Virus record (IMG/VR): IMGVR_UViG_2541047937_000003 | Location: 1 to 33,630 of that record | Direction: 5' to 3' (one strand) | Source: a virus | Taxonomy: Duplodnaviria; Heunggongvirae; Uroviricota; Caudoviricetes | Length of the DNA: 33,630 nt | Part shown: piece after piece, positions 4,171-20,125 of the stretch | Layout: each line of letters opens with the position of its first letter | How positions within the stretch are numbered: the stretch's first letter is position 1 | The notes under the pieces: model-generated | The model's input: the letters and a program-made list of their open reading frames with translations, nothing else | Database searches by the model: none | Told to the model about the DNA's origin: nothing | Program-made: the position numbers and the translations under genes

Positions 4171-4995
4171 TCAGGCGGTGAAAGTACCAATAAAGGTTTC
4201 TACTTTGCTGTCTTTGAATTTCTCAACAAGCAGATCACGAAATTCGTTAGCCATATCTTCCTGCACTGCTTCCAGCTGAATAATGCGCAGAACCAGTACA
4301 GGACGATCGCCAGTGATAATGCTGAGGCGTAATTTAAACGGACGTTCTTTCAGACCTTCAAACGGAACGCATTTAAATTCAAATGCCACTGGCATAATGT
4401 CTTTGGTCTTCGCTTCGACAGATTCCATCAGGGAGCGTTTGCCGCTGAAGTCATTATCTTCAAAATCAGCGGTCTGGTTTGCTTCAATCGTGATTTTACG
4501 GATTGCCGCAGCCGCTTTTGTTGCCTGAATGGCGTCACCATTAGCATCAAAGCCCACAAGGTAGTCGGCCCAGTCTTCAATCCATTCTGCCAGTGACTTC
4601 TGGGAGTTACGCTCGCCGTTAACAGACAACAGAGCAGAGAACGGTGCTGTCTTTTTCAGTTTGAGTGTGGCGGTGTTATCTGCGTGACCTGGTTCATCAA
4701 TAGTACCCAGGTTAAGCACACTGACGGCACGCATATTATCAGCATCGATAAAGCAGCGGGTGCCTTCATCTGCAAGATCTTTAGAATAACGGGTAAAGTC
4801 ATCGATGCTGGCAGTGGAAAGCGCACCACGGAAACGGAAGCGATTTAAATTAAATTTTTCCAGATCATGAATGCGGAAATTCTCAGGCAATGCCACAGCA
4901 TCGGCACCAATCTTACTGATAATTTCATTAACACCCTGAGCAGAAATAAGGGCATGGATTTGATTAATTGCGGTTGCGTCTAAGTTCTGAGACAT
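4171..4995 (-). CDS. YfdQ-like protein (DUF2303 family), 274 aa
   Basis: Complete ORF, typical codon usage, same length as YfdQ of CPS-53; family from memory, not verified. Confidence 0.6.
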
Positions 4996-5060
4996 AATAA
5001 GTCCTCACTATATAAAGATATTCAGTGATGAGATAAATAATCAGTTAATTAAAAACGATA

Positions 5061-5423
5061 TTAACGACCTGCTGCGCGGAGTTTTCCGTCAGGTTCACCG
5101 GCAAGAGTCAGCAACTGTCCCTGGTCTTCCTGCAGAATAGTCAGGCGACCACCGCGATTGACATACATCGGCGTTTCGGTGGTGTCTTCTTCGGAAATTT
5201 TCCCGCGGTTAGTCGGGCGAACATATGAGAGTTTGTGTTTGATTTTCACTCGGTTCTCATCAAACGGTTCGATTTCCAGGTTGAGCGAGACCTTACCTTT
5301 GGTTTTCGTGTTCATCACACCGGAAGCGACTTCACTGAGAACTGCGCCGATTTTGGTTTCAAATACGCCGCCGTCCAGCTCCCCGATAAATGCCTGCACA
5401 TCAGTACTGCGTTCGCTAGCCAT
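5061..5423 (-). CDS. hypothetical protein, 120 aa (YfdP-like), first gene of the early-left cluster
   Basis: Start set at ATG preceded by GAGGAG RBS (MASERSTDVQAFIGELDGG...); the longer 226-aa track ORF runs into GC-rich non-coding DNA. Confidence 0.6.
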   Translation of the reverse strand: MASERSTDVQAFIGELDGGVFETKIGAVLSEVASGVMNTKTKGKVSLNLEIEPFDENRVKIKHKLSYVRPTNRGKISEEDTTETPMYVNRGGRLTILQEDQGQLLTLAGEPDGKLRAAGR

Positions 5424-5891
5424 TTTGCTGCTCCTCATCATATCGACCCTGCAAGGTCGGTTAGTTTCTCCACAAAACAGAGAAGAACACCTGCGGTGGC
5501 TGCCGCCCGGATGGATTGGGTTATGAGCCCGTCGTCCGGTGATGCTCTTCTCTGTTTTGTAAAAAGGACGGTACCAGCCGGAAGCAAGGGTACAAGCTGG
5601 TACCGCCAAGACTACACACAGCATAAAGTTGTGGTGCCGGGTGCCTCCCGGTGCCTGGCGAAGGTTGCACACCAGGCGGGTGGGTATCCACAGAAGGTCG
5701 ACTGTCAGCCTCAACCTTAACCCGCGTGCGCTGAGCCGCATTCACCACAACGCTAAGGATTCTCTCTGGTTGAAAATACTTAGCTGTTATGTGCCTGCTT
5801 TTAGCCACATCAGGCGAGGTGGACCTAGTTATTCCCCAACAACAAGGATTCGGTTAATCTGGTTATCCCCAACAACGCAAAAGGAAAAGAA

Positions 5892-6326
5892 ATGTCCGGT
5901 AATATCTATACGCTGTACAAATCCCACTGTGAAAATGTTGGAAAGTATCGGGGCATTGAAATCAGTGGGGTAGTGTCATCAGTCGAAATAAGCAAAGTTG
6001 AATCAAGGGCAACATTACTTACTCTTCTGGACCTTGTCTTACATGAGCACCGGAAGAAATTCGGCACTCCCTATAATCAGTTGAATGGGAAAAAGGCTCT
6101 GGTTCACCTTATTCTGATGAAGCATCACTGGATGCCAAAACAGATTAATGAGATGAAATTTGATGAACTTCTTCTTTCAATTCAGGATGAACTCACACTT
6201 GATAAAATAAGCGTAACCGCCCAGAAATTTTTAGATTATCGAGACTGGAGATCACAAATTCATCACTTTGATGATTTTGACGAAAATGAATGGGATCCTA
6301 ATTTGTCTGCACAATATCTAAAGTAA
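5892..6326 (+). CDS. AT-rich accessory protein, 144 aa, unknown function
   Basis: ORF with AAGGAAAAG RBS; visibly lower GC than neighbours; strand opposite to the surrounding early-left genes; own intrinsic terminator at 6562..6590. Confidence 0.6.
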   Translation: MSGNIYTLYKSHCENVGKYRGIEISGVVSSVEISKVESRATLLTLLDLVLHEHRKKFGTPYNQLNGKKALVHLILMKHHWMPKQINEMKFDELLLSIQDELTLDKISVTAQKFLDYRDWRSQIHHFDDFDENEWDPNLSAQYLK

Positions 6327-6504
6327 CATCCTGTGATAAAACCGTGATTTCCTGATCCAGTTTTTTTAAGGAGTCTATTGTTTCCTGTCGATAAGACAGC
6401 ACTTCACGAAGCTGGTTTATAGCTGCCAGCTTCTTTGTCATCCACTCATAAATTTCCTCATCTGTGTAGCCAGGCGCGACGATTTTGGGTTCTGTTTTGT
6501 GCAT
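6298..6504 (-). CDS. small hypothetical protein, 68 aa, convergent with and overlapping the 144-aa gene
   Basis: ATG with GAGGAG RBS 9 nt upstream (MHKTEPKIVAPGYTDEEIYEW...); first ORF downstream of the OL operators. Confidence 0.45.
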   Translation of the reverse strand: MHKTEPKIVAPGYTDEEIYEWMTKKLAAINQLREVLSYRQETIDSLKKLDQEITVLSQDVTLDIVQTN

Positions 6505-6561
6505 TTCACATCTCCTCAAGTTATCAGTTACTTGTTGATGGGGACCAGATTGTTAAAGAGC

Positions 6562-6590
6562 TAAGCGTCCTGTAGGGCGCTTTTTTGTTG
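6562..6590 (+). terminator. rho-independent terminator
   Basis: AGCGTCC-tgta-GGGCGCT stem (one G-U pair) followed by TTTTTTG. Confidence 0.6.
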
Positions 6591-6752
6591 CTAACGAATC
6601 ATCCTGGACTTCATATGCCCCAGGCGGCTACTTCGTGGGCGTCCTGCCTGTTCGTTTTTGACATTTACTGACTGCTTACGACACATGCACCGTGTTGCAA
6701 CCAGATTTTGTTGTAATCCTGTAGTTGGTCTGGAACAAAAGATAAAATTAAA

Positions 6753-6789
6753 TTGCGAGATATGCAAGTGGTATTTGCGAGATATGCAA
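6753..6789. promoter_or_regulatory. two tandem 15-bp operator copies (OL-like), TTGCGAGATATGCAA at 6753..6767 and 6775..6789
   Basis: Identical 15-mers with palindromic TTGCG...GCAA ends, 22-bp centre-to-centre, just beyond the cI terminator; a third related copy is at 7557..7571 between cI and cro. Confidence 0.6.
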
Positions 6790-6799
6790 ATTTATAGGT

Positions 6800-6825
6800 A
6801 ATAAAAAGCCACCTTTCGGTGGCCG
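6800..6825 (-). terminator. rho-independent terminator of the cI-like gene
   Basis: GCCACC-tttc-GGTGGC hairpin (6808..6823) followed on the minus strand by TTTTTAT; lies 20 nt after the cI stop. Confidence 0.7.
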
Positions 6826-6843
6826 ATGGATGGGATATTGAGG

Positions 6844-7536
6844 TTAATTATGTCTCTTAAGGGTTTGCGACTGACTGATTAAGACCTTTCCAAAGACCAT
6901 GAATCGGTGTTCGTTTTCGCTAGTAATTCCCCATTCACGGTAAATCTGGTTATCAGAAATCACCAGCAGTTTGTCAGGAATCATTTGAAGTCTTTTAACG
7001 TATATTTTGTCATCAAAACCAAAGACATATATACCATCACCATCAAACTGATTGATGCTGACATCAACGAAGATGAGATCTCCTGGCTCAATGGTTGGAC
7101 ACATACTGTCCCCACGAACGTTGATAACTTTGATGTGATTGGCTGGTCGTCCGCCGAACATTGATACAGCATTATCAGTTCTGTATTCGATGGCATGAAT
7201 CACATCAATGACATCACCGCCCTGGATAAGGCCATTTCCCGCACTGGCACTGATATCCAGCATTTCAATACGGAACACATCCTTCACCTGCGCAACATCC
7301 TCATTATTACTGTTTTTATATACAGTATTACTTTTGTGGGCAGAGGTAAAGAGATCAGCAATATCAACACCTAAGCTCTTGGCAATATTACTCAGTGTTT
7401 GTTCGGTAAATTGTTTTTGCTTACCCGTTTCTAAGCGCGAGATGTTCGCCGCATCTACTCCTATCGCTTCAGCGAGATCGGCGATTTTCATGTTCTTCGC
7501 TTGGCGAAGTTGTCTGACTCGGTTTCCTATGTTCAT
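6844..7536 (-). CDS. cI-type repressor, N-terminal HTH plus C-terminal S24 LexA-like peptidase domain (230 aa)
   Basis: N-terminus MNIGNRVRQLRQAKNMKIADLAEAIGVDAANISRLETGKQ (HTH); C-terminus GDSMCPTIEPGDLIFVD...YVKRLQ (Ser/Lys dyad); divergent from a cro-like gene. Confidence 0.85.
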   Translation of the reverse strand: MNIGNRVRQLRQAKNMKIADLAEAIGVDAANISRLETGKQKQFTEQTLSNIAKSLGVDIADLFTSAHKSNTVYKNSNNEDVAQVKDVFRIEMLDISASAGNGLIQGGDVIDVIHAIEYRTDNAVSMFGGRPANHIKVINVRGDSMCPTIEPGDLIFVDVSINQFDGDGIYVFGFDDKIYVKRLQMIPDKLLVISDNQIYREWGITSENEHRFMVFGKVLISQSQTLKRHN

Positions 7537-7633
7537 GCGTTTATTACATTTCTTTATTGCGTGATAAGCAAATCAACTTGCGCAAAATAATTGCGTGAAA
7601 TAACATGCATAACGCGCAATATTTGGAGGGCGT
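7537..7633. promoter_or_regulatory. divergent cI/cro promoter-operator region (OR/PR/PRM equivalent)
   Basis: Contains TTGCGTGATAAGCAA (7557..7571), palindromic TTGCGCAA (7578..7585) and further TTGCG/CGCAA half-sites; candidate PR -35 TTGCGC (7578..7583) and -10 TAACAT (7601..7606) with 17-bp spacer; GGAGGG RBS before cro. Confidence 0.6.
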
Positions 7634-7894
7634 ATGCAATCACCATTACGAAATGTGCGTAAGGCGCATGGTTTCACTTTGCAGCATGTTGCTGCGGGTG
7701 TTCAAGTCAATCCAGCGACGTTGAGTCGTATTGAGAGGCTGGAGCAGATTCCATCTATCGAGCTTGCAGAACGTTTAGCCAATTTTTTTAAGGGTGAAGT
7801 CAGCGAAATGCAGATTCTTTATCCGGCACGTTTTCAATCTAGCCAAAACCAGAATGGGTTTAAACCACAGGAACAGGAGGTGAACCGTGGGTAA
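7634..7894 (+). CDS. Cro-like HTH regulator, 86 aa
   Basis: HTH segment FTLQHVAAGVQVNPATLSRIERLEQIPSIELAERLANFF; divergent from the cI-like gene. Confidence 0.7.
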   Translation: MQSPLRNVRKAHGFTLQHVAAGVQVNPATLSRIERLEQIPSIELAERLANFFKGEVSEMQILYPARFQSSQNQNGFKPQEQEVNRG

Positions 7895-8438
7895 GCATCA
7901 CTGGAAAGTAGAAAAACAGCCTGAGTGGTACGTGAAAGCTGTCAGAAAAACTATCGCAGCGTTGCCGGGGGGGTACGCTGAAGCTGCTGACTGGCTGGAT
8001 GTAACAGAGAACGCATTATTTAACCGCCTTCGTGCCGATGGCGATCAGATTTTCCCGCTGGGATGGGCAATGATTTTGCAACGTGCTGGTGGAACTCACT
8101 TCATTGCTGACGCTGTGGCGCAGTCTGCAAATGGCGTCTTTGTGTCTCTTCCTGATGTCGAGGATGTGGACAACGCCGATATCAACCAACGCCTGCTGGA
8201 GGTCATTGAACAGATCGGCAGTTATTCAAAACAGATTCGTTCAGCAATTGAAGACGGTGTAGTGGAACCGCATGAGAAGACAGCAATTAACGACGAGCTG
8301 TACCTCTCAATTTCGAAGCTGCAGGAGCATGCAGCACTGGTCTACAAAATTTTTTGCATTTCAGAAAGTAATGACGCCCGCGAGTGTGCAGCTCTGGGCG
8401 CCGTGGCGTGTCGTGACTGTGGAGAAACTAACGCATGA
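7887..8438 (+). CDS. hypothetical early-right protein, 183 aa (possibly CII-like or YdaT-like regulator)
   Basis: Start overlaps cro stop; C-terminal Cys cluster ([14 protein letters not shown]); family not recognised with confidence. Confidence 0.5.
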
Positions 8439-8793
8439 ACAGTTTAACAACACACTACCGTCGCTCGCAACTGATTGCGCTTCCTGTACCGGGTGGAAAA
8501 GCGAAGGTGGAGTATTGCTATGCAGTAAATGTACCAGGTGGCAGGGTAATTGTAACCCACAGCTTTGCAGAGTGGGCTGTGGGTGATTTTAACCGGCAAA
8601 AGGAGACAGTCCTTTGCGACAAGTTAACCGCTGGTTCAAAGATCACTACGGAGTACCCGTCAGAGTCATTCGTTGGGAGCCGGAAACACAACGGGTTATC
8701 TACCTCCGTGAAGGCTATGAGCATGAGTGCTTCAGCCCGCTCGAACAGTTTCGTCGTAAATTCAGGGAAATAGAGGTCGGTCATGAGCACTAA
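8435..8793 (+). pseudogene. hypothetical gene with apparent frame change: protein-like N-terminal part in one frame (8435..about 8610), protein-like C-terminal part in another (8614..8793)
   Basis: Track ORF 8435..8773 has a plausible first 59 aa then S/T-rich low-complexity tail; the other frame from TTG 8614 (AAGGAG-like RBS GGAGA at 8602..8606) gives [59 protein letters not shown] and ends overlapping the O-like start. Confidence 0.35.
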
Positions 8794-9724
8794 ATTAACC
8801 GGCTATGTATGGGATGGTTGCGCAGCGTCAGGCATGAAATTATCCAGCGTGGCAATTATGGCCCGCCTGGCTGATTTCAGTAATGACGAAGGTGTGTGCT
8901 GGCCATCAATTGAAACCATTGCCCGTCAGATTGGCGCGGGGATGAGTACCGTCAGGACGGCTATCGCACGGCTGGAAGCAGAAGGCTGGTTAACGCGTAA
9001 GGCGCGTCGCCAGGGTAACCGCAATGCGTCGAATGTTTATCAGCTTAACGTTGCGAAGCTTCAGGCAGCGGCATTTTCTCAACTGTCAGATTCTGACCCG
9101 TCAAAATCTGACGCATCAAAATCTGACCCGTCAAAATTTGATGCGTCGAAATCTGGCAAAAAAGCGGGTTTTCACCCGTCAGAATCTGGCGGGGATCCGT
9201 CAGTAAAATCAAAACATGATCCGTCAGATAAAAAACCTTCTCGTCCGGACGCTTCGCAACCGGACACGCAGACGGATGAACAGGATTTTTTAACTCGCCA
9301 TCCTGATGCGGTTGTATTCAGCCCTAAAAAGCGCCAGTGGGGAACGCAGGATGATTTGACCTGCGAACAGTGGCTCTGGAAAAAAATCATCGCCCTGTAC
9401 GAGCAAGCCGCCGAATGTGACGGCGAGGTGGTTCGTCCCAAAGAACCGAACTGGACAGCCTGGGCAAACGAAATTCGCCTAATGTGTGTGCAGGATGGTC
9501 GTACTCACAAACAAATCTGCGAGATGTACAGCCGCGTCAGCCGCGATCCGTTCTGGTGCCGTAACGTGCTCAGCCCGTCGAAGCTGCGGGAAAAATGGGA
9601 TGAGCTTTCCCTGCGCTTATCACCGTCCGTCAGCACGTACACCGAAAAACGCGAAGACCCGTACTTCAAATCCAGTTACGACAACGTGGACTACAGCCAG
9701 ATCCCGGCAGGATTCAGGGGGTGA
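8783..9724 (+). CDS. replication initiator, lambda O-like (N-terminal wHTH, iteron-encoded low-complexity linker), 313 aa
   Basis: N-terminal HTH (WPSIETIARQIGAGMSTVRTAIARLEAEGWL); central SDSDPSKSDASKSDPSKFDASKS repeats encoded by DNA iterons; position between cro region and rusA. Confidence 0.65.
   Translation: MSTKLTGYVWDGCAASGMKLSSVAIMARLADFSNDEGVCWPSIETIARQIGAGMSTVRTAIARLEAEGWLTRKARRQGNRNASNVYQLNVAKLQAAAFSQLSDSDPSKSDASKSDPSKFDASKSGKKAGFHPSESGGDPSVKSKHDPSDKKPSRPDASQPDTQTDEQDFLTRHPDAVVFSPKKRQWGTQDDLTCEQWLWKKIIALYEQAAECDGEVVRPKEPNWTAWANEIRLMCVQDGRTHKQICEMYSRVSRDPFWCRNVLSPSKLREKWDELSLRLSPSVSTYTEKREDPYFKSSYDNVDYSQIPAGFRG
9083..9236. repeat. iteron cluster (putative origin of replication) inside the O-like gene
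   Basis: At least four tandem 15-bp repeats CCGTCAAAATCTGAC / GCATCAAAATCTGAC / CCGTCAAAATTTGAT / GCGTCGAAATCTGGC, then an A-rich stretch and three more degenerate CCGTCAG copies. Confidence 0.65.
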
Positions 9725-9726
9725 TC

Positions 9727-10129
9727 ATGAGTCTTTTGAATGAAGTTCAGAAATTCATTGAAGCCCATCCGGGGTGTACTTCCGGAGACATTGCGGATGC
9801 TTTTGCAGGTTACTCACGGCAGCGCGTTCTGCAGTCAGCAAGCAAGTTACGTCAGAGTGGGCGTGTGGCTCACCGTTGTGAAGGAGATACACGCAGACAT
9901 TTCCCACGCCTGCCGTTCAGTGAATGCAGCGGTAGAGCATCTTCGTGCACTGGAGAAAAAAGGCGTCATCACGATAAAGCGTGGCGTGGCCCGGGGGATA
10001 ACGCTTCATACCGCGGTGAAGGACGACGACAGCGAGGCGGTCGGGATTATCCGCGCACTGCTTGCCGGTGAGGAAAACGCCAGGCTGCGTGCAGCCCACT
10101 GGTTACATGAGAGAGGCCTGAAAGTATGA
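9727..10129 (+). pseudogene. LexA-N-terminal-type winged-helix DNA-binding gene, reading frame interrupted (+1 shift or ~97-nt insert between 9817 and 9913)
   Basis: One frame gives MSLLNEVQKFIEAHPGCTSGDIADAFAGYS (LexA helix 1-2 pattern), another gives RSVNAAVEHLRALEKKGVITIKRGVARGITLH (LexA recognition helix and wing). They are contiguous in LexA but 97 nt apart and out of frame here. The two track ORFs 9721..10071 and 9740..10129 each have an Arg-rich or odd half. Confidence 0.4.
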
Positions 10130-10515
10130 AGCTGATCTTGCCTTTCCCGCCCAGCGTGAACACGTACTGGCGACACCCCAACAAAGGGGCGTTTGCTGGT
10201 AAGAGTCTGATAAGCGCGGCGGGGCGAAAATTCCAGAGCGCGGCGTGCGCAGCAATAGTTGAGCAGTTACGTCGTCTGCCGAAACCAACGTCGGCACCTG
10301 CTTCAGTGGAGATCGTGTTGTTTCCTCCGGATAACCGGATCCGCGATCTGGACAACTATAACAAGGCGCTGTTTGACGCCCTGACCCACGCGGGTGTGTG
10401 GGAAGACGACAGTCAGGTGAAAAGAATGCTGGTGGAGTGGGGACCGGTTATCCCGGAAGGGAAGGTCGAGATCACTATCAGTAAGTACGAGAAAACGGCG
10501 GGTGCAGCCGCCTGA
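10126..10515 (+). CDS. rusA: RusA-family Holliday junction resolvase, 129 aa
   Basis: LPFPPSVNTYWRH N-terminus and DLDNYNKALFDALTHAGVWEDD acidic catalytic region typical of RusA; nin-region position. Confidence 0.8.
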   Translation: MKLILPFPPSVNTYWRHPNKGAFAGKSLISAAGRKFQSAACAAIVEQLRRLPKPTSAPASVEIVLFPPDNRIRDLDNYNKALFDALTHAGVWEDDSQVKRMLVEWGPVIPEGKVEITISKYEKTAGAAA

Positions 10516-10534
10516 TCAAGAGGAGAAACGAAGT

Positions 10535-10795
10535 ATGAATAATCTGATGGTCATTGATGGTATTGAAGTTCGTCGTGATACTTATGGGCGTTACAGCCTG
10601 AACGATCTGCACAGGGCTGCCGGTTCTCTGGATAAGCATAAGCCTGCATTCTGGCTCCGCAATGAGCAAACTGAACGTTTAATAAGCGAGTTGCAGATTT
10701 GCAACTCGGTCAATATAGAGCCAGTTAACGTTATTCGTGGCGGAAATAACCAGGGGACGTATGTCTGCAAAGAACTGGTGTACCGTGGCATTTGA
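10535..10795 (+). CDS. KilA-N domain protein, 86 aa
   Basis: MNNLMVIDGIEVRRDTYGRYSLNDLHRAAGS...KPAFWLRNEQTERLISEL matches the KilA-N/Bro-N pattern; start set at ATG with AGGAGA RBS. Confidence 0.55.
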   Translation: MNNLMVIDGIEVRRDTYGRYSLNDLHRAAGSLDKHKPAFWLRNEQTERLISELQICNSVNIEPVNVIRGGNNQGTYVCKELVYRGI

Positions 10796-10884
10796 AGAGA
10801 AGTATGGTTCCCAGCTGGAGCTGATATTTCGTTTTATCGATCGTGCGCTGGCAATAGGCGTACTGGCGTAAGTGGAGAACGAGC

Positions 10885-11637
10885 ATGAACCTTGAAGCCT
10901 TACCGAAATATTACTCCCCGAAATCTCCAAAACTGAGCGATGACGCACCGGCGACAGGCTCTGGTGGTTTAACGATTACGGATGTGATGGCTGCGCAGGG
11001 GATGGTGCAGTCGAAAGCACCGCTTGGGTTTGCCTTATTCCTGGCAAAAGTTGGTGTTCAGGATCCTCAGTTTGCGATTGAAGGTCTGCTCAATTACGCG
11101 ATGGCACTGGATAACCCGACATTGAATAAATTGAGTGAAGAAACCCGGCTACAGATCATTCCTTACCTTGTGAATTTTGCCTTTGCTGATTATTCCAGGT
11201 CTGCGGCAAGTAAGGCTCGCTGTGAGCATTGTGCTGGTACTGGATTTCATAATGTATTGCGCGAAGTGGTGAAACACTCCAGAAGCGGGGAGTCTGTTAT
11301 CAAGGAAGAGTGGGTGAAGGAACTATGTCAGCATTGTCATGGTAAGGGAGAAGTCAGCACAGCGTGCAGAGGGTGTAAGGGTAAAGGTATTGTCCTGGAT
11401 GAAAAAAGAACCCGGCTTCATGGTACGCCTGTTTATAAGATTTGTGGGCGTTGCAATGGAAAACGGTTTAGTCGTTTACCAACCACACTGGCGCGGCATC
11501 ATGTCCAGAAACTGGTACCAGACCTGACGGATTATCAGTGGTACAAAGGATATGCAGATGTCATTGATAAACTGGTTACAAAGTGCTGGCAGGAGGAATC
11601 TTACGCTGAAGCACAATTGAGAAAGGTGACAAGATAA
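10885..11637 (+). CDS. putative late-gene regulator in the Q (antiterminator) position; protein with four CxxCxGxG Zn-finger repeats, 250 aa
   Basis: CEHCAGTG, CQHCHGKG, CRGCKGKG, CGRCNGKR repeats; last early-right gene before the late terminator and lysis cassette. Q assignment is positional. Confidence 0.4.
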   Translation: MNLEALPKYYSPKSPKLSDDAPATGSGGLTITDVMAAQGMVQSKAPLGFALFLAKVGVQDPQFAIEGLLNYAMALDNPTLNKLSEETRLQIIPYLVNFAFADYSRSAASKARCEHCAGTGFHNVLREVVKHSRSGESVIKEEWVKELCQHCHGKGEVSTACRGCKGKGIVLDEKRTRLHGTPVYKICGRCNGKRFSRLPTTLARHHVQKLVPDLTDYQWYKGYADVIDKLVTKCWQEESYAEAQLRKVTR

Positions 11638-11744
11638 GTGATCTTCGCCGAAAATGGTGACATCATGCTTGCAATTTTCAAAAAAACATGGATAAGATTT
11701 TCTCAACGATGGGCTTTATGTATCTGCTGTTGATAACCTTCAAG

Positions 11745-11770
11745 AACTCGCCATTGAGCGGGTTTTTTAT
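11745..11770 (+). terminator. candidate late-leader terminator (tR'-like) downstream of the Q-like gene
   Basis: CTCGC-cattga-GCGGG hairpin (one G-U pair) followed by TTTTTTATT; a TATAAT hexamer follows at 11805..11810. Confidence 0.3.
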
Positions 11771-11840
11771 TGTGTAAAAACAGAATGACGGTATTAATTA
11801 GTAATATAATTATTCGACCATACAACTAGGGGTCGAAAAA

Positions 11841-12626
11841 ATGTATGTTTTTGAGTTAATCAAGCCAGGCAGTAATCTTAAGTTTGAAAACAGAGAGTTA
11901 GAATGGACGTTTAATAACTTATTATCCCATTTAGAAACTGCATTTTATGATGCTAATGTAGCATTAAATTTATTCGAACAGGAAAGAACTAAGAATAACA
12001 GTAAATTCGATAATATTTCTCAGACATGGCAAGCTGATGTACAGAAACGACAAGCACTGGAAATGCTGGTTCGTAAAGAGTTTGGTTATCAACCTTATGA
12101 ATATTCAGAACAGGTTTTTTCAGAGGTCGAGCTACGTCTAAAAAGAGAAAAATGGAATAACGGTGAATATCCGTTGGCTCATCAACACAGATTGATCTTC
12201 TTACATGCAAAATCATTTCTCTACGCTTTGGATGCTATTGATAAATTTTTAAAGGTAATTTCAAAAGAAAATGGCGCGCCAGAGAACATTAAAAAATTGC
12301 ATGAACAGCTTTCTAAAGACTTTCCGAATTTAAGAAAGGTAAGGAATTCAGCTCAACACATGGAAGACAGAGTTCGTGGGCTTGGTGCAGAGAAAGAACC
12401 AAAGCCAATAAAACTCAAACCTGTAAATAATATTCATGTTGTTGCACCTCAGGGGGCATTGATGTTGAATAACTTATTCGGAACTAAATTTGGGTGCACT
12501 ATGGCTGATGGCTATTATGGTGAAGTAGATATTTCGACAGAGTCTTTGGCAAAGTTGCAAAATTTAATCCAAAAAGTTTTTAATTCCTTCAGTTGGGAAG
12601 GACCAAAGCAACACCTTCCCCGATAA
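11841..12626 (+). CDS. AT-rich moron protein, 261 aa, unknown function; contains an R-x4-H motif (RNSAQH, aa 168-173): candidate abortive-infection/defence protein
   Basis: Complete ORF with AGGGG RBS; markedly AT-rich with atypical codon usage; sits between the Q-like gene and the holin; followed by a perfect bidirectional terminator. Confidence 0.6.
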   Translation: MYVFELIKPGSNLKFENRELEWTFNNLLSHLETAFYDANVALNLFEQERTKNNSKFDNISQTWQADVQKRQALEMLVRKEFGYQPYEYSEQVFSEVELRLKREKWNNGEYPLAHQHRLIFLHAKSFLYALDAIDKFLKVISKENGAPENIKKLHEQLSKDFPNLRKVRNSAQHMEDRVRGLGAEKEPKPIKLKPVNNIHVVAPQGALMLNNLFGTKFGCTMADGYYGEVDISTESLAKLQNLIQKVFNSFSWEGPKQHLPR

Positions 12627-12630
12627 CATT

Positions 12631-12675
12631 TTCTTTTTTATTGAAAGCCGCCAAATAATTGGCGGCTTTTTTATT
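12631..12675. terminator. bidirectional rho-independent terminator
   Basis: Perfect 11-bp stem AAAGCCGCCAA / TTGGCGGCTTT (12644..12654, 12659..12669), 4-nt loop, T tracts on both sides. Confidence 0.8.
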
Positions 12676-12715
12676 TCACAGTACCCGCAAATATCGCGAG
12701 GTGAGAGATGACGAA

Positions 12716-13042
12716 ATGCCTCATAACCCAAATACCTGGCTGGACTTGGTCCAGAGCTGGTGGCGTGGAGACACACCGCTGGGCGCAGTGATTATGTCGA
12801 TTGTTATGGCTGGCTTGCGCATTGCATATTTTGGCGGTGGTGGGGGCTGGAAACGAAAAACACTCGAGATTTTGCTCTGTGGTGCTCTGACGCTGACTTT
12901 TGCATCCGCTCTTGAGTATGTCGGATGGCCTAAATCTCTTTCTGTTGCCATTGGTGGTGGCGTTGGGTTGATCGGTGTCGATGCTATTCGTGGGGCTGCA
13001 ATGAGTGTAATCGGTAATAAGTTTGGTGGCTCTAAGGAGTAA
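12716..13042 (+). CDS. holin, 108 aa, three predicted TM segments
   Basis: Hydrophobic segments LGAVIMSIVMAGLRIAYF, TLEILLCGALTLTFASAL, LSVAIGGGVGLIGVDAI; immediately upstream of the endolysin; start set at ATG with GAGGTGAGAG RBS (track ORF starts at a TTG inside the terminator). Confidence 0.7.
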   Translation: MPHNPNTWLDLVQSWWRGDTPLGAVIMSIVMAGLRIAYFGGGGGWKRKTLEILLCGALTLTFASALEYVGWPKSLSVAIGGGVGLIGVDAIRGAAMSVIGNKFGGSKE

Positions 13043-13045
13043 TTT

Positions 13046-13522
13046 ATGCAGGTACTAAATTCCCAGCGTAAAGCTTTCCTTGATATGGTGGCTTGGTCAG
13101 AAGGAACGGATAACGGACGACAACCGACACGTAACCACGGTTATGACGTTATTGTCGGTGGTGAACTCTTCACTGATTACTCCGATCACCCTCGCAAACT
13201 TGTCACGCTAAACCCGAAACTCAAGTCAACAGCCGCCGGACGTTACCAGCTTCTTTCACGCTGGTGGGATGCTTACCGTAAACAGCTTGGCCTGAAAGAT
13301 TTTTCTCCAGAAAGCCAGGACGCTGTAGCTCTGCAGCAGATTAAAGAGCGTGGCGCTTTACCGATGATTGACCGCGGCAATATTCGTCAGGCAATCGACC
13401 GTTGCAGCAATATCTGGGCGTCGTTACCAGGTGCAGGTTACGGTCAGTATGAACATAAAATCGGCGACCTGATTGCCCGATTTAAAGAGGCTGGTGGGGT
13501 AGTAAATGAAGCTGAGATATAA
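13046..13522 (+). CDS. endolysin, lambda R-type lytic transglycosylase, 158 aa
   Basis: NSQRKAFLDMVAWSEGTDNGRQPTRNHGYDVIVGGELFTDYSDHPRKLVTLNPKLKST... is near-identical to lambda R as I recall it; same length. Confidence 0.92.
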   Translation: MQVLNSQRKAFLDMVAWSEGTDNGRQPTRNHGYDVIVGGELFTDYSDHPRKLVTLNPKLKSTAAGRYQLLSRWWDAYRKQLGLKDFSPESQDAVALQQIKERGALPMIDRGNIRQAIDRCSNIWASLPGAGYGQYEHKIGDLIARFKEAGGVVNEAEI

Positions 13523-13898
13523 GCTGGTTATTGTTGCCTTCTTTGTTACCGTCATTGGTTCCTTCATCTGGTCTGTCGGGCATTACTACAGCAAATATCA
13601 GCACGAAAAGGAGCGTGCTGATGAGGCTGTACGAAATGCTGAATCGGCAACTGCCATTACCAATAACGTCCTGCAATCAATACAAATCGTAAATACAGCA
13701 CTGGAGGCTAGCCAGCATGCAAAACAACAAATCGCACTGGAGTCACAGAGAACCCAGGAAGATATCAAAGTGGCTGTTGCGAATGATGATTGCGCTTCAC
13801 GTCCTGTGCCTGCTGCCGCTACTGACCGGTTGCGGAAGTACGCGGACAGTTTACGTGAGCACCCCAGTAGCACCACTGTCAACCACCCTAACTTCTGA
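13506..13898 (+). CDS. Rz-like i-spanin, 130 aa
   Basis: N-terminal TM anchor (LVIVAFFVTVIGSFIWSV) then helical region; start overlaps the endolysin stop; contains an Rz1-like ORF in the +1 frame. Confidence 0.6.
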   Translation: MKLRYKLVIVAFFVTVIGSFIWSVGHYYSKYQHEKERADEAVRNAESATAITNNVLQSIQIVNTALEASQHAKQQIALESQRTQEDIKVAVANDDCASRPVPAAATDRLRKYADSLREHPSSTTVNHPNF

Positions 13899-14031
13899 AA
13901 CACCGATTCCAATTATACCTAGTCCACTGACATATGGTGCTAGCCTAGACCTGAATGCAAGTTTGTTATCTGCATTAGGGCAGTGCAATAGAGATAAAAA
14001 GGCTATCCGCAGTATAAACAATGCTAGATGA
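13783..14031 (+). CDS. Rz1-like o-spanin lipoprotein
   Basis: +1 frame relative to Rz; signal peptide with lipobox LLTGC (MMIALHVLCLLPLLTGCGS), Pro-rich mature part; extends 133 nt beyond Rz. Start uncertain (13717 or 13783). Confidence 0.5.
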   Translation: MMIALHVLCLLPLLTGCGSTRTVYVSTPVAPLSTTLTSETPIPIIPSPLTYGASLDLNASLLSALGQCNRDKKAIRSINNAR

Positions 14032-14109
14032 AGATTTTAATTTAAATTGAAGATGCCTATTACTAGACATCTTTATAATTTATGCTCAAACCAAAGTGGA
14101 TTTGTAATA

Positions 14110-14484
14110 TTAAAGACTATTTAGGAGACTCTGAATAATAGGCCATAAAGTTAATGTGTTTGCACCAGCTGAGTAAAATCGCTCCATCAGTTGTAGAGGT
14201 GTTGATGACTGATTAAACTTGATATCATTTAAAATGTCGTATATTTCTTGTAGCTTCTCTGCACCAAGTTTATCGTTAATTTCACTTAAGTTATTTTGTA
14301 TGGCGATTTCTGCTTCTTTTATAAGCCGAACTGTTTCTGCTGAGTAATGAATATTGTTGGAAAGAAAAGTATTAGCTGAATCAATAATTTCATAACCAAC
14401 ATCAGCACCAAATGATTTGTTTCCAATTATTTTGATGTTTTCGCATCCCTCAATGCGATAAGCAACGGTTTTCTTTTCACTCAT
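14110..14484 (-). CDS. AT-rich reverse-strand moron protein, 124 aa, unknown function
   Basis: Complete ORF on the strand opposite to the late genes, between Rz1 and HNH (the position lambda bor occupies); strongly AT-rich; no signal peptide or TM segment seen. Confidence 0.55.
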   Translation of the reverse strand: MSEKKTVAYRIEGCENIKIIGNKSFGADVGYEIIDSANTFLSNNIHYSAETVRLIKEAEIAIQNNLSEINDKLGAEKLQEIYDILNDIKFNQSSTPLQLMERFYSAGANTLTLWPIIQSLLNSL

Positions 14485-14611
14485 GTTATAACCTGTGTTT
14501 AGTTACTTTTATTAGAACCTTGTTATCAGATTTTTCTCATAAAGGAAAGAGTGAAAGAGAAAAATGAATCTCTTTTGTCAAATATGTCTATCAGATTAAA
14601 GAGAGTATTTT

Positions 14612-14962
14612 ATGCCAGCACTGATACCTAGAGCCTGCCGTGTTCGCGGCTGCCACCATACCACTACTGACCCGTCAGGCTATTGTGAAAGCCATAAAAG
14701 CGAAGGCTGGAAGCAATACAAGCCAGGCCAGTCCCGTCATCAGCGCGGCTACGGTTCGAAGTGGGACAGTATCCGCGCGCGCGTCCTGAAGCGTGACAAA
14801 GGTTTATGTCAGTTATGTCTGCGTGCCGGTGTGGTGCGTGAAGCTAAAACCGTTGACCACATCATCCCTAAAGCGCATGGCGGCACCGATGCAGACAGTA
14901 ATCTGCAGAGCCTGTGCTGGCCGTGCCATAAGACGAAGACGGCCCGTGAACGGCTAAAGTGA
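14612..14962 (+). CDS. HNH endonuclease (terminase-associated), 116 aa
   Basis: CRVRGCHHTT...CQLCLRAG...VDHIIPKAHGGTDADSNLQSLCWPCH: HNH core with two CxxC pairs; immediately upstream of terS. Confidence 0.85.
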   Translation: MPALIPRACRVRGCHHTTTDPSGYCESHKSEGWKQYKPGQSRHQRGYGSKWDSIRARVLKRDKGLCQLCLRAGVVREAKTVDHIIPKAHGGTDADSNLQSLCWPCHKTKTARERLK

Positions 14963-14988
14963 TAATAATTCTCAACTGCCTGAGGGGA

Positions 14989-15048
14989 GGGGCGGGTCAA
15001 ATCCCTGTGGCCTGACGTCTTCCGGACTGCCCGCCCCATCGTTTTTTT
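14989..15048 (+). other. GC-rich inverted repeat between HNH and terS: candidate cos/packaging site or long-loop terminator
   Basis: GGGGCGGG (14989..14996) pairs with CCCGCCCC (15030..15037) across 33 nt, followed by TTTTTTT (15042..15048); in HK97-like phages cos lies between HNH and terS. Confidence 0.35.
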
Positions 15049-15087
15049 ATACCCGCGAAAAATGAAATTTAACCAGGAGTGCCGCAT

Positions 15088-15759
15088 ATGGCTGGAACGG
15101 CGGGGCGTTCCGGGCGTCGCCCCAAGCCAACGGCGCGCAAGGCGCTGGCCGGAAACCCCGGCAAGCGAGCCCTGAATAAAGATGAACCTGTTTTTACGCC
15201 CATCAAAGGTGTTGAGCCACCGGAGTGGTTCGCTGAAGAAGATCTCCCTCTCGCTACGATCATGTGGCAACTGACAACTAAAGAACTCTGCGGTCAGGGC
15301 CTGCTGTGCGTGACTGACCTCGCGGTGCTTGAGCGGTGGTGCGTGGCCTACGAGTTCTGGCGACGTGCCGTGAAAAATATTGCCAGACAGGGCAACACCA
15401 TCACCGGTGCAATGGGCGGTATGGTCAAAAATCCGGAGCTGACCGCCAAAAAAGAACAGGAGTCCGAGATGAGCAGTACGGGGGCAATGCTCGGACTCGA
15501 CCCCAGCAGCCGCCAGCGTCTGATTGGCCTGGCGGGGCAGAAGAAAGCCACTAAACCGCGCAGAAGGATAAGTTCGGCGCGGGTAAGAACGGTTTTACCC
15601 GTGGTAACCCCCAGACTGGCACACCTGCCACCGATCTGGATGATGACTACTTTGATATGTTGCAGGAAGAACTCTGCAGCGTGGTGGAGGCATCCGGTGC
15701 CAGCCTGGAGAAGGGGCGAAACGACCAGTTGCTTACCGCGCTTCGTGCTCTGCTGTTAA
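15088..15759 (+). CDS. terminase small subunit, P27 family; 3' end abnormal (authentic sequence ends near codon 153, about 15546, then read-through)
   Basis: [37 protein letters not shown]-terminus; AGGAG RBS; after ...LIGLAGQKK the frame continues as Arg/Cys/Trp-rich sequence while a tail-fibre frame opens at 15555. Confidence 0.7.
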
Positions 15760-16277
15760 GCCGCAAGAATCCGTTTGGTGATATCAAATCGGATGGCACG
15801 GTGAAAACGGCTCTCGAAAACCTTGGTTTGGGAGAAGCGGCAAAACGGAATGTGGGCAACGGGGAAAACCAAATCCCTGATATGTCTTTCTGGACGGTTA
15901 CTGGTGGCAATGGAAATTTTGTGATTCGTCAACCTGACGGGCTAATCATCCAGATGGTTACTGTAAGTATAAGCGGCCCAGTGGCGATGAATGGAATGAC
16001 TGATAATGCTTATGCCATCACAGGTTCTAATAAGTCTTATATTGCCACAGCCACATTGCCCTTTGTATTTCCTAATAAGGTGCTGGGCGTTATCCCTCTG
16101 GTATCAACAACAACCTATGGTGGTGTATCCAGTAATATTACAGGTTCATACGCGACGGCGGTTTGTTCTTTTGCCGCTGTCCGGGGGAATAATACGATTG
16201 TATTCAAAGTCGACAAACCACTGAATGCAGCCTTTCCTTCAGATACCAGCGTCTCAGCGTTAATCATTGGACGGTAA
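15657..16277 (+). CDS. tail-fibre protein C-terminal fragment, variant 1 (Stf-like), 206 aa
   Basis: First 60 aa ([24 protein letters not shown]...ENLGLGE) identical to the opposite-strand ORF 17297..17974, then a unique region; frame is open upstream to 15555 with no start codon, so this is a 3' remnant of a longer fibre gene. Confidence 0.7.
15811..15836. promoter_or_regulatory. 26-bp crossover site for a Gin/Hin/Pin-family serine invertase (left copy)
   Basis: CTCTCGAAAACC-TT-GGTTTGGGAGAA resembles hix/gix sites (two 12-bp AAACC-containing half-sites around a 2-bp core); lies exactly at the constant/variable boundary. Confidence 0.65.
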
Positions 16278-17297: not shown

Positions 17298-17974
17298 CAG
17301 GCAGCCCTCACGATATAATTAAAGGCAATGTTACGAGGACGGTTTTCGTTTGCAGTTGGAACAATTCTTGAAGCATCAAGGCCAATCACTTTTGGGTAAA
17401 CACCGCCCTCGGACCTTTCTGTCACCATACTTCTGACTAAGGAGAAATAACTATTGTTCGTTGAGGGGTTCAAAGGCACTACTGCCCCCTTAAACGAGCC
17501 TACTGATTCCCATATTGAATAATTTTCGGTGTTTACAGTCTTGAACTCACCATAGATATTACGTATGGCATCGCCCTGAGCTGATAATATTGCCCTCCCC
17601 GTATCCATACCACGTCCGTCATCCCAGCCACGAATAAACTCACCACGTAAATCAGGCAATTTATTTGTCGGGTAAGCCTTTGCCAGTTCCGGGTATTCTT
17701 CAACAGAAAAAGCTGCTCCGTTGCATTTCAGCCAGCCTGTTGGCGGAGTGGCTGAGGGCCACGGAACAGGTACGCCAACAGGCAATGCTGAGCCTTCTCC
17801 TAAACCAAGGTTTTCGAGAGCCGTTTTCACCGTGCCATCCGATTTGATATCACCAAACGGATTCTTGCGGCTTAACAGCAGAGCACGAAGCGCGGTAAGC
17901 AACTGGTCGTTTCGCCCCTTCTCCAGGCTGGCACCGGATGCCTCCACCACGCTGCAGAGTTCTTCCTGCAACAT
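17297..17974 (-). CDS. tail-fibre protein C-terminal fragment, variant 2 (Stf-like), 225 aa
   Basis: Shares the first 60 aa with variant 1, then a different region ([29 protein letters not shown]...). Confidence 0.7.
17795..17820. promoter_or_regulatory. 26-bp invertase crossover site (right copy, inverted orientation)
   Basis: TTCTCCTAAACC-AA-GGTTTTCGAGAG is the reverse complement of the left site with one substitution (17801 T versus the complement of G 15830). Confidence 0.65.
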
Positions 17975-18543
17975 ATCAAAGTAGTCATCATCCAGATCGG
18001 TGGCAGGTGTGCCAGTCTGGGGGTTACCACGGGTAAAACCGTTCTTACCCGCGCCGAACTTATCCTTCTGCGCGGTTTAGTGGCTTTCTTCTGCCCCGCC
18101 AGGCCAATCAGACGCTGGCGGCTGCTGGGGTCGAGTCCGAGCATTGCCCCCGTACTGCTCATCTCGGACTCCTGTTCTTTTTTGGCGGTCAGCTCCGGAT
18201 TTTTGACCATACCGCCCATTGCACCGGTGATGGTGTTGCCCTGTCTGGCAATATTTTTCACGGCACGTCGCCAGAACTCGTAGGCCACGCACCACCGCTC
18301 AAGCACCGCGAGGTCAGTCACGCACAGCAGGCCCTGACCGCAGAGTTCTTTAGTTGTCAGTTGCCACATGATCGTAGCGAGAGGGAGATCTTCTTCAGCG
18401 AACCACTCCGGTGGCTCAACACCTTTGATGGGCGTAAAAACAGGTTCATCTTTATTCAGGGCTCGCTTGCCGGGGTTTCCGGCCAGCGCCTTGCGCGCCG
18501 TTGGCTTGGGGCGACGCCCGGAACGCCCCGCCGTTCCAGCCAT
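17872..18543 (-). CDS. terminase small subunit, P27 family (mirror copy of 15088..15759)
   Basis: Identical translation on opposite strand. Confidence 0.65.
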
Positions 18544-18582
18544 ATGCGGCACTCCTGGTTAAATTTCATTTTTCGCGGGTAT

Positions 18583-18642
18583 AAAAAAACGATGGGGCGG
18601 GCAGTCCGGAAGACGTCAGGCCACAGGGATTTGACCCGCCCC
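18583..18642 (-). other. GC-rich inverted repeat, candidate cos site or terminator (mirror copy of 14989..15048)
   Basis: Mirror copy. Confidence 0.3.
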
Positions 18643-18668
18643 TCCCCTCAGGCAGTTGAGAATTATTA

Positions 18669-19019
18669 TCACTTTAGCCGTTCACGGGCCGTCTTCGTCT
18701 TATGGCACGGCCAGCACAGGCTCTGCAGATTACTGTCTGCATCGGTGCCGCCATGCGCTTTAGGGATGATGTGGTCAACGGTTTTAGCTTCACGCACCAC
18801 ACCGGCACGCAGACATAACTGACATAAACCTTTGTCACGCTTCAGGACGCGCGCGCGGATACTGTCCCACTTCGAACCGTAGCCGCGCTGATGACGGGAC
18901 TGGCCTGGCTTGTATTGCTTCCAGCCTTCGCTTTTATGGCTTTCACAATAGCCTGACGGGTCAGTAGTGGTATGGTGGCAGCCGCGAACACGGCAGGCTC
19001 TAGGTATCAGTGCTGGCAT
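18669..19019 (-). CDS. HNH endonuclease (mirror copy of 14612..14962)
   Basis: Identical translation on opposite strand. Confidence 0.8.
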   Translation of the reverse strand: MPALIPRACRVRGCHHTTTDPSGYCESHKSEGWKQYKPGQSRHQRGYGSKWDSIRARVLKRDKGLCQLCLRAGVVREAKTVDHIIPKAHGGTDADSNLQSLCWPCHKTKTARERLK

Positions 19020-19146
19020 AAAATACTCTCTTTAATCTGATAGACATATTTGACAAAAGAGATTCATTTTTCTCTTTCACTCTTTCCTTTATGAGAAAAA
19101 TCTGATAACAAGGTTCTAATAAAAGTAACTAAACACAGGTTATAAC

Positions 19147-19521
19147 ATGAGTGAAAAGAAAACCGTTGCTTATCGCATTGAGGGATGCGAAAACATCAAA
19201 ATAATTGGAAACAAATCATTTGGTGCTGATGTTGGTTATGAAATTATTGATTCAGCTAATACTTTTCTTTCCAACAATATTCATTACTCAGCAGAAACAG
19301 TTCGGCTTATAAAAGAAGCAGAAATCGCCATACAAAATAACTTAAGTGAAATTAACGATAAACTTGGTGCAGAGAAGCTACAAGAAATATACGACATTTT
19401 AAATGATATCAAGTTTAATCAGTCATCAACACCTCTACAACTGATGGAGCGATTTTACTCAGCTGGTGCAAACACATTAACTTTATGGCCTATTATTCAG
19501 AGTCTCCTAAATAGTCTTTAA
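19147..19521 (+). CDS. AT-rich moron protein, 124 aa (mirror copy of 14110..14484)
   Basis: Identical translation on opposite strand. Confidence 0.5.
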   Translation: MSEKKTVAYRIEGCENIKIIGNKSFGADVGYEIIDSANTFLSNNIHYSAETVRLIKEAEIAIQNNLSEINDKLGAEKLQEIYDILNDIKFNQSSTPLQLMERFYSAGANTLTLWPIIQSLLNSL

Positions 19522-19599
19522 TATTACAAATCCACTTTGGTTTGAGCATAAATTATAAAGATGTCTAGTAATAGGCATCTTCAATTTAAATTAAAATCT

Positions 19600-19848
19600 T
19601 CATCTAGCATTGTTTATACTGCGGATAGCCTTTTTATCTCTATTGCACTGCCCTAATGCAGATAACAAACTTGCATTCAGGTCTAGGCTAGCACCATATG
19701 TCAGTGGACTAGGTATAATTGGAATCGGTGTTTCAGAAGTTAGGGTGGTTGACAGTGGTGCTACTGGGGTGCTCACGTAAACTGTCCGCGTACTTCCGCA
19801 ACCGGTCAGTAGCGGCAGCAGGCACAGGACGTGAAGCGCAATCATCAT
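19600..19848 (-). CDS. Rz1-like o-spanin (mirror copy of 13783..14031)
   Basis: Mirror copy. Confidence 0.45.
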   Translation of the reverse strand: MMIALHVLCLLPLLTGCGSTRTVYVSTPVAPLSTTLTSETPIPIIPSPLTYGASLDLNASLLSALGQCNRDKKAIRSINNAR

Positions 19849-20125
19849 TCGCAACAGCCACTTTGATATCTTCCTGGGTTCTCTGTGACTCCAGTGCGAT
19901 TTGTTGTTTTGCATGCTGGCTAGCCTCCAGTGCTGTATTTACGATTTGTATTGATTGCAGGACGTTATTGGTAATGGCAGTTGCCGATTCAGCATTTCGT
20001 ACAGCCTCATCAGCACGCTCCTTTTCGTGCTGATATTTGCTGTAGTAATGCCCGACAGACCAGATGAAGGAACCAATGACGGTAACAAAGAAGGCAACAA
20101 TAACCAGCTTATATCTCAGCTTCAT
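19733..20125 (-). CDS. Rz-like i-spanin (mirror copy of 13506..13898)
   Basis: Identical translation on opposite strand. Confidence 0.55.
   Translation of the reverse strand: MKLRYKLVIVAFFVTVIGSFIWSVGHYYSKYQHEKERADEAVRNAESATAITNNVLQSIQIVNTALEASQHAKQQIALESQRTQEDIKVAVANDDCASRPVPAAATDRLRKYADSLREHPSSTTVNHPNF

Follow-up and report, generated by a model that had tools for sequence, protein, structure and literature searches.

An AT-rich cargo gene of the Q-holin slot of enteric prophages belongs to a widespread, partner-free protein family and is a candidate anti-phage gene

What does a strongly AT-rich gene, placed between the Q-like late antiterminator and the holin gene of an Escherichia coli prophage, do for the element that carries it? 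The question is raised by IMG/VR virus record IMGVR_UViG_2541047937_000003 (Caudoviricetes), of which positions 1 to 33,630 were analyzed (this whole stretch of 33,630 nucleotides is referred to below as the window). The gene encodes a 261-amino acid (aa) protein of the family phrog_5322, which is annotated as being of 'unknown function'. Judged from its sequence, it is a good anti-phage candidate, and the interpretation that we tentatively favor is that of a new stand-alone HEPN-like ribonuclease (RNase), encoded by a moron that occupies the Q-holin slot of a lambdoid-type prophage and serving to abort infections or to exclude other phages.

The gene is set apart from its surroundings by base composition and by its distribution among related prophages. 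The GC content of its open reading frame (ORF) is 35.6% and that of the block around it (11772-12663) 35.1%, as compared with 47.4% for the 15.8-kb arm of the window in which it resides, 47.3% for Q and 49.8% for the holin-lysozyme module; only 3.3% of 786-nucleotide (nt) windows of the arm are equally AT-rich. On the left side, 312 other E. coli genomes share positions 11640-11771 (approximately 130 nt following Q, at about 85% identity) and then diverge, this leader being retained irrespective of the cargo that follows it. On the right side, the holin-lysozyme module is found in more than 1000 genomes at 90-95% identity, with similarity starting at approximately 12664-12692. Since the similarity to other prophages ends at about 11771 and resumes at about 12664-12692, the cargo can be delimited to approximately 11772-12675. 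The gene is carried by 22 of the 5426 complete E. coli genomes, and different cargo is found in the same slot of relatives: strain ATCC 11775 has a gene for a hypothetical protein of 111 aa, HZ13 one for a DNA methyltransferase and strain 3347558, on the other strand, one for a nucleoid-associated protein. A preliminary description of this locus had recognized a strongly AT-rich ORF with the layout of a moron, located between a Q-like gene and a holin gene. This placement is confirmed by the Pfam matches of the two flanking genes (PF03589, 1e-53; PF05106, 1e-24), and the moron interpretation is well supported by the edges of similarity, the alternative cargo in relatives, the deviating GC content and the gene's own terminator.

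The cargo is bounded by two intrinsic terminators. The downstream one (12643-12670) is composed of a perfect 11-bp stem (AAAGCCGCCAA/TTGGCGGCTTT) followed by a T-run; its folding free energy (dG) is -18.7 kcal/mol (z = -5.7; 0 of 200 shuffled sequences fold as well), and it would be expected to insulate the holin gene. The perfect stem had been reported correctly in the preliminary description, which also took this terminator to be bidirectional; the latter proposal was rejected, since a call was obtained for the + strand alone and T, not A, predominates in the 5' flank. The weaker upstream terminator (11742-11767; dG -11.1, z = -1.7), absent from that earlier account, occupies the position of lambda tR' and is conserved at the homologous locus of Leclercia. 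The gene's own ribosome-binding site (AGGGG, 8 nt before the ATG codon) and the TATAAT hexamer upstream, both noted before, are indeed present. A block containing GTAATATAATT is conserved 5' of the Leclercia homologue (64% identity), where TAGATA-18-TATAAT scores 10/12 in a promoter scan.

The Q-holin slot is occupied by the homologues in all Enterobacterales copies examined, which come from five prophage lineages with differing backbones and show 99, 64, 61, 51 and 38% identity. Both the Q families (PF03589, PF06323 and PF06530) and the holins (holin_3_1, holin_2_3 and holin_8/3_7) differ across these lineages. A terminator is present 20-45 nt 3' of the homologue in the Klebsiella, Enterobacter and Leclercia prophages, and another follows Q at the Klebsiella and Enterobacter loci (the Leclercia equivalent was seen by alignment); the terminator-ORF-terminator layout is found in four phage lineages. 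In two Klebsiella prophages (L081:6653-6895 and L082:6634-6894), an opposite-strand ORF of 80-86 aa, without a counterpart in the E. coli window, is located between Q and the homologue.

This constancy of position (always 3' of Q and its terminator and 5' of the holin gene, in five enterobacterial phage lineages) might be taken to indicate a late gene that serves the lytic cycle of the phage itself, co-transcribed with the lysis cassette; its product might be an RNase or regulator that turns off host or early transcripts, or that adjusts late gene expression or the timing of lysis. Since the gene lies 3' of Q and 5' of the holin gene, Q antitermination must, according to this explanation, express it, which would be in line with the weakness of its own promoter in the window. 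However, the gene is insulated by its own terminator and preceded by a conserved -10 block. It is also missing in most relatives with which the prophage shares its Q or its holin, and is therefore dispensable. Moreover, the family is found on a 4.2-kb plasmid, in an integron cassette and as an orphan chromosomal insert, none of which has a lytic cycle. We consider a role in lytic growth improbable.

The protein family is large and broadly distributed. A word-indexed search yielded 316 homologues; when 1.84 billion cluster representatives were searched with a profile, 986 matched (clusters at 50% identity), 797 of them at E <= 1e-10. Nearly all members have a length of 250-280 aa and a single full-length match. 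Their hosts are Gamma-, Beta-, Delta-, Epsilon- and Alphaproteobacteria, with single cases in Cyanobacteria, Bacteroidota, Acidobacteriota, Chloroflexota and Deinococcota; the copies of E. coli and Leptolyngbya (Cyanobacteria) are approximately 45% identical, and horizontal spread must therefore be assumed. The idea that the ORF is a non-functional chance reading frame, or a decaying remnant in AT-rich filler, can appeal only to the absence of annotation. It is refuted by full-length conservation at a constant size of about 260 aa in approximately 986 clusters from many phyla, by residues that are invariant across the family and by a confident fold prediction (see below), and its probability is close to nil. 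The preliminary description had named no family, and phrog_5322 has neither name nor function in the libraries queried. No mention of phrog_5322 or WP_021570654 was found in the literature, including the DefensePredictor and integron-biobank supplements, earlier experimental work not being excluded by this search.

Outside phages, the homologues were identified in a variety of genetic contexts. In the 4168-bp Psychrobacter plasmid pA53P1 the homologue is the sole cargo, the remainder of the plasmid consisting of rep, mobA and mobC. On Acinetobacter and Proteus plasmids of 7-9 kb it lies beside toxin-antitoxin (TA) modules, and on two Acinetobacter Rep3 plasmids directly 3' of an Abi_2 gene. 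In an integron array of Vibrio parahaemolyticus it forms a one-gene cassette between attC-type repeats, and the same array contains an AbiV cassette; 14 repeat copies (approximately 120-136 nt, TAACAA...GGCGTTA) occur there (locus L007) at a spacing of 480-930 nt, those at 7861 and 8790 flanking the homologue (8001-8786). Other homologues were found on an Aeromonas integrase/VapE island with a SIR2_2 gene, on a Leptolyngbya Prim-Pol element near a KAP NTPase gene and, in Chromobacterium, as an orphan insert between a phosphotransferase system (PTS) operon and a GntR regulator gene. In Pseudomonas parafulva the homologue is located between HEPN_AbiU2 and an AAA_21 + RloB pair on a primase-bearing island. 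The complete row of cargo genes of this Toprim/DUF927 primase island (L004:7064-12796) comprises HEPN_AbiU2, the homologue, a gene for a 311-aa protein without assignment, and AAA_21 + RloB (AbiL-like), and looks like a satellite-type defense hotspot.

The gene is autonomous, i.e. single and without a conserved partner. Clustering of the six nearest ORFs at 54 loci, each from a different species, revealed no conserved partner: the largest neighbor cluster comprised 4 of the 54 loci, three of which were near-identical Acinetobacter loci. The absence of a conserved partner at these loci, together with the occurrence of the gene as the sole cargo of a plasmid and of a cassette, led us to conclude that it functions and moves alone. 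A TA module was rejected on the same grounds. The autonomy of the gene also means that it can be cloned alone, which makes it easy to test. A defense function fits this mode of travel (single cassette, sole plasmid cargo, neighbors of the Abi_2, AbiU2 and AbiL types), and the company of the homologues is often, but not consistently, defense-like.

The fact that phages, plasmids, integrons and satellite-like islands are carriers alike would suit a counter-defense or element-maintenance factor that favors the element through post-segregational killing, or by inactivating an immune or RNA component of the host, and not by protecting the cell from phages; the copies of small plasmids do adjoin TA modules. 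Addiction, however, requires an antitoxin-like partner, and none is conserved. Small size and early expression are the rule for anti-defense genes, whereas the gene analyzed here encodes 261 aa in a late operon, and it is found beside Abi genes rather than anti-restriction genes. This alternative is, in our judgment, decidedly improbable.

The proposal that the favored immune effector might be an RNase draws on a short motif and on residues around it. The preliminary description had drawn attention to the sequence RNSAQH, of the R-x4-H type, with the caution that six residues are not diagnostic. The motif is present (R168 to H173, nt 12342-12359) and the caution was appropriate: approximately 0.4 R-x4-H motifs are expected by chance in a protein of 261 aa, so that a single one is not beyond chance, and a second (RLIFLH, residues 117-122) is not conserved in the family. 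The significance of the motif therefore lies in its conservation and not in its mere presence. Among 114 family members, 30-67% identical to the query, R168 is found in 113, and H173 and R177 in all 114. The position following the motif arginine is invariably polar (asparagine in 96 sequences, aspartate in the other 18), position 175 is acidic throughout (E in 108, D in 6), and D176 and R179 are retained in 103 and 101 sequences, respectively. Two candidate upstream acidic elements were also distinguished. In the first, D131 is conserved in 106 of the 114 sequences and position 135 is K (85) or R (20), i.e. basic in 105; in the second, position 97 is E (50) or D (40), i.e. acidic in 90, and position 101 is K (92) or R (11), i.e. 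basic in 103.

HEPN domains are defined as four-helix up-and-down bundles, often with inserts, whose R-x4-6-H motif is placed where helix 3 ends and the loop leading to helix 4 starts (Anantharaman et al. 2013, PMC3710099). The motif arginine is followed by a polar residue (N, D or H), the motif region is frequently non-helical and flexible, and often an upstream acidic residue of helix 2, typically in the context E-x3-[KR], lies near the motif (PMC3710099). Of these features, the conserved R-x4-6-H and the N or D directly after its arginine are found in the phrog_5322 family.

The structure of the protein was predicted with AlphaFold2. With 42 sequences the mean confidence (predicted local distance difference test, pLDDT) was 88 and the motif region was weak; with 114 sequences it rose to 96.8 (predicted template modeling score, pTM, 0.90), the secondary structure remaining unchanged. 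Residues 18-178 are predicted to be helical (helices 18-81, 89-106, 112-142, 149-160, 164-172 and 174-178), with a helix break at H173 and a loop after residue 178. Residues 181-259, together with the strand 6-8, are predicted to form a small alpha/beta domain, containing a small sheet (211-230 and 257-259) and a helix (233-248).

Several results weigh against the favored interpretation. The link to HEPN proteins was not recovered by profile or structure comparison: Pfam and NCBIfam scans of the 261-aa protein returned nothing relevant, sequence and profile searches of the PDB gave chance hits only (choline kinase, SRP54), and a Pfam scan of 74 diverse family members produced scattered chance hits but no HEPN model at E <= 1. 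The hhalign comparison with the Abi_2 profile gave a probability of 0.6%, and no relationship was seen when AbiU2 and AbiV, each represented by a single sequence, were compared in the same way. A Foldseek search of the PDB and BFVD yielded nothing at E <= 0.001, the nearest hits being long coiled-coil hairpins and not HEPN proteins. As far as defense is concerned, PADLOC-DB v2.0 contained 0 families matching the protein at E <= 10; thus, the profile search (Pfam, PADLOC) suggested in the preliminary description returned neither a HEPN nor a defense-model match. When the neighborhoods of the homologues were surveyed (288 ORFs within three positions on either side, 54 species, Pfam and PADLOC scans), no clear enrichment of defense genes was seen. 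There were only a handful of defense-model matches, mostly methyltransferases and helicases, and some were likely ABC-transporter false positives. The overall picture was heterogeneous, methyltransferases, HipA kinases, helicases and insertion sequence (IS) elements occurring in small numbers among many housekeeping genes, and many of the loci represent ordinary housekeeping contexts. Finally, a consensus scan called no promoter 5' of the ORF in the window because of a poor -35 region, which indicates that the putative promoter of the gene is weak.

In the hhalign comparison with a single Abi_2 protein, the sole segment aligned was motif on motif (VRNSAQH / IRNVCAHH). Taken together, the near-invariance of R-x4-H with its N or D in 114 sequences, the candidate [DE]x3[KR] elements upstream, the position of H173 at a helix break with a loop after it, and the motif kept in a remote homologue of Marinitoga viruses (see below) speak for the HEPN idea of the preliminary description, and the lack of a match in the HEPN profile and Foldseek searches speaks against it; we regard the assignment of the family to divergent HEPN proteins as evenly balanced. 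HD- or Fic-type motifs were rejected by inspection, as there is only one invariant histidine and the sequence that follows it does not fit.

The same results can be read in favor of a phage-exclusion or defense protein that is not a HEPN RNase, but has a new fold, made up of the helical hairpin and bundle with the small beta domain, in which the R/H/E/D/R cluster binds a ligand or catalyzes another reaction with a nucleotide, protein or DNA as its target. The mobile-element and Abi-neighbor contexts serve this explanation equally well, there is no HEPN profile link, the nearest structural matches are coiled-coil hairpins, and the invariant E175, D176, R177 and R179, which follow the histidine, lie outside the HEPN definition. 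The near-invariant R-x4-H with its N or D speaks for the HEPN-like RNase instead, and we hold the non-HEPN alternative to be rather unlikely. A more general formulation, put forward with some reserve, is that the protein may be a structurally new stand-alone immune effector of the nuclease type, characterized by a long helical hairpin, R-x4-H with the invariant E-D-R-x-R, and a sensor-like beta domain. With equal reserve, the gene could represent an unrecognized single-gene anti-phage system, distributed in the stx slot of enteric lambdoid prophages, in integron cassettes and on minimal plasmids.

A search of a phage-isolate collection produced no close homologue, only hits to Marinitoga viruses. 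The remote homologue (200 aa; hhalign 96.7%) is encoded by Marinitoga camini virus 1 (L079:2911-3510) and Marinitoga phage MPV1, temperate viruses of Thermotogae, directly after the tape-measure gene. It corresponds to the helical core with the motif VRNSIAHYEAR, without the C-terminal beta domain. An attempt to connect phrog_5322 through it with annotated proteins failed; its own family has only 3 members and no Pfam domain.

If the gene does encode a HEPN-like RNase of abortive infection, the following mechanism may be envisaged. In a lysogen, constitutive transcripts from the late promoter would halt at the tR'-like terminator (11742-11767), the weak promoter of the gene (-10 at 11805-11810) would provide low expression, and the strong terminator (12643-12670) would block this transcript from entering the holin gene. 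The helical N-terminal part of the protein would constitute a HEPN-like bundle, in which R168, N169 and H173, with E175, D176, R177 and an upstream acidic residue, would make up a metal-independent RNase site; as with other HEPN enzymes, a homodimer would probably be needed to complete it. The C-terminal alpha/beta domain could keep the enzyme inactive until it receives a trigger from an infecting phage; RNA cleavage would then arrest the cell, resulting in abortive infection or the exclusion of competing phages. On induction of the prophage, Q-modified polymerase would read through both terminators and the gene would be co-expressed with the lysis genes.

Single-protein Abi genes of the HEPN type are already known as mobile cargo, and such candidates are common. 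The proteins AbiD/AbiF (Pfam Abi_2), AbiU2, AbiV and AbiJ resemble phrog_5322 in being one-gene modules of plasmids and prophages with a motif of the R-N-x3-H type, and members of phrog_5322 directly adjoin Abi_2 and AbiU2 genes. They differ in that no homology is detectable (0.6% in hhalign, no Pfam hit), in their architecture, and in the sequence following the histidine, which in phrog_5322 is E-D-R-x-R-G-L-G. The toxins of HEPN/MNT pairs (5yep_B, 7ae2_A, 8xdj_A) require an adjacent MNT antitoxin, whereas phrog_5322 has no partner and is twice as long. An integron-cassette HEPN protein, Vpc_cass2 (PDB 3JRT), belongs to a family listed by Anantharaman et al. 2013 (PMC3710099). Among the analogues described, the nearest in concept is Esos, encoded by an integron cassette of V. 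cholerae; it consists of a HEPN-like domain only and protects against phages through growth arrest. The motif strings of phrog_5322 are absent from the supplement of the Esos paper, the search hits included no V. cholerae homologue, and no relationship between the two is established.

In Stx phages, the slot between Q and the holin gene is occupied by the stx operons. The cargo described here shares with the Q-S slot morons of lambdoid phages their position, deviating base composition, own terminator and variety of content, but phrog_5322 is no secreted toxin: the protein is cytoplasmic and has a motif of the nuclease type, and it also circulates outside phages. Should the favored interpretation be true, about a thousand clusters of 'hypothetical proteins' would gain a function, a slot known mainly for Shiga toxin would be a recurring home of an immunity gene, and a compact, partner-free RNase switch of 261 aa would be open to study. 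Even without a link to HEPN proteins, an invariant R/H/E/D/R cluster in a confidently predicted fold without a match suggests an uncharacterized activity.

The features of the locus, and the enterobacterial loci compared with it, are listed in Table 1. The prophage Q gene identical to that of the window is labeled 'antitermination protein' in RefSeq, and the holin gene is followed by genes encoding a GH24 endolysin and the Rz/Rz1 spanins.

Table 1. Positions of the features of the cargo locus in the window, and enterobacterial loci with a homologue
Feature	Position	Strand	Identity	Basis or context
Q-like late antiterminator, left neighbor	10885..11637	+		PF03589 Antiterm, E = 1e-53
Late-promoter/leader region (putative, pR'/qut-like)	11638..11741	+		promoter-like GTGACA-18-GAAAAT at 11626-11655
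tR'-like intrinsic terminator, left boundary of cargo	11742..11773	+		10-pair stem + T-run
AT-rich cargo (moron) block: promoter-like element, ribosome-binding site, ORF, terminator	11772..12675	+		GC shift + similarity edges
TATAAT -10-like hexamer, candidate promoter (putative function)	11805..11810	+		read from sequence
Shine-Dalgarno-like AGGGG	11828..11832	+		read from sequence
261-aa protein, ATG start, phrog_5322	11841..12626	+		PHROG match 1e-139, full length
E97-x3-K101 codons, second candidate acidic element	12129-12143	+		conservation
D131-x3-K135 codons, candidate upstream acidic [DE]x3[KR] element	12231..12245	+		conservation
R168-N-S-A-Q-H173-M-E175-D176-R177-V-R179 codons, candidate catalytic site	12342..12377	+		conservation in 114 sequences
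Strong intrinsic terminator, right boundary of cargo	12643..12676	+		stem + T-run, folding scores
Lambda-S-family holin, right neighbor	12716..13042	+		PF05106, 1.3e-24; RefSeq annotation
Mirror ORF copy	21005..21790	-		identical to 11841..12626 ORF; product of palindrome
E. coli locus				Q PF03589, holin_3_1
Leclercia locus			64%	Q-holin slot
Klebsiella loci			61%	three different prophages, Q PF06323 or PF06530, holin_2_3
Enterobacter locus			51%	Q PF03589, holin_8/holin_3_7, GH19 lysin
Citrobacter locus			38%	Q-holin slot

The window itself has an unusual structure. Positions 1..15829 are the exact reverse complement of 17802..33630 (15,829 nt, 0 mismatches), so that the window is a perfect inverted repeat with a center of approximately 2 kb between the arms, each of which begins with proA/tRNA-Thr and covers the left half of the prophage. 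Such a structure probably reflects a fold-back artifact of the assembly and not a second locus. The palindrome is the reason why the features of the arm each appear twice, and it accounts for the mirror copy of the ORF, correctly listed in the preliminary description. The non-palindromic center (15559-18072) is an invertible tail-fiber segment of the Mu G / P1 C type, containing a Gp53-like tail-fiber C-terminus, two opposed tail-fiber assembly genes (PF02413) and a fiber end with a Collar domain; the inverted repeats that flank this segment probably caused the fold-back.

A prophage integrated beside proA/tRNA-Thr in E. coli PRO_A-1443-6M-A matches the window at 99.8-100% identity. The match to this reference prophage extends as far as 15558, close to where the small terminase gene ends, and the head and tail genes are therefore missing from the contig. 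As compared with the closest complete genome (L001), the window is devoid of two segments, L001 10404-10815 and 11686-13141. The first (approximately 410 nt) is situated in the yfdN (PerC-family) gene and corresponds to the window junction at about 9912/9913. The second (approximately 1.46 kb; junction at about 10781/10782) comprises the end of a KilA-N gene and a DUF968 gene, and due to its absence a truncated KilA-N ORF abuts Q. Further upstream (8783-9724, + strand), a helix-turn-helix protein of the replication region is encoded, with a low-complexity Ser/Asp/Pro/Lys repeat stretch in its middle (…SDSDPSKSDASKSDPSKFDASKS…).

A second AT-rich orphan gene (14110-14484, - strand; mirror copy 19147-19521, + strand; 33% GC) encodes a protein of 124 aa, for which no match was found in Pfam and PHROG. 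It lies on the opposite strand, between the spanin genes and the HNH endonuclease/terminase genes. The slot 5' of the packaging module has been reported to be a hotspot of prophage immunity genes, e.g. Tai (PMC11364771).

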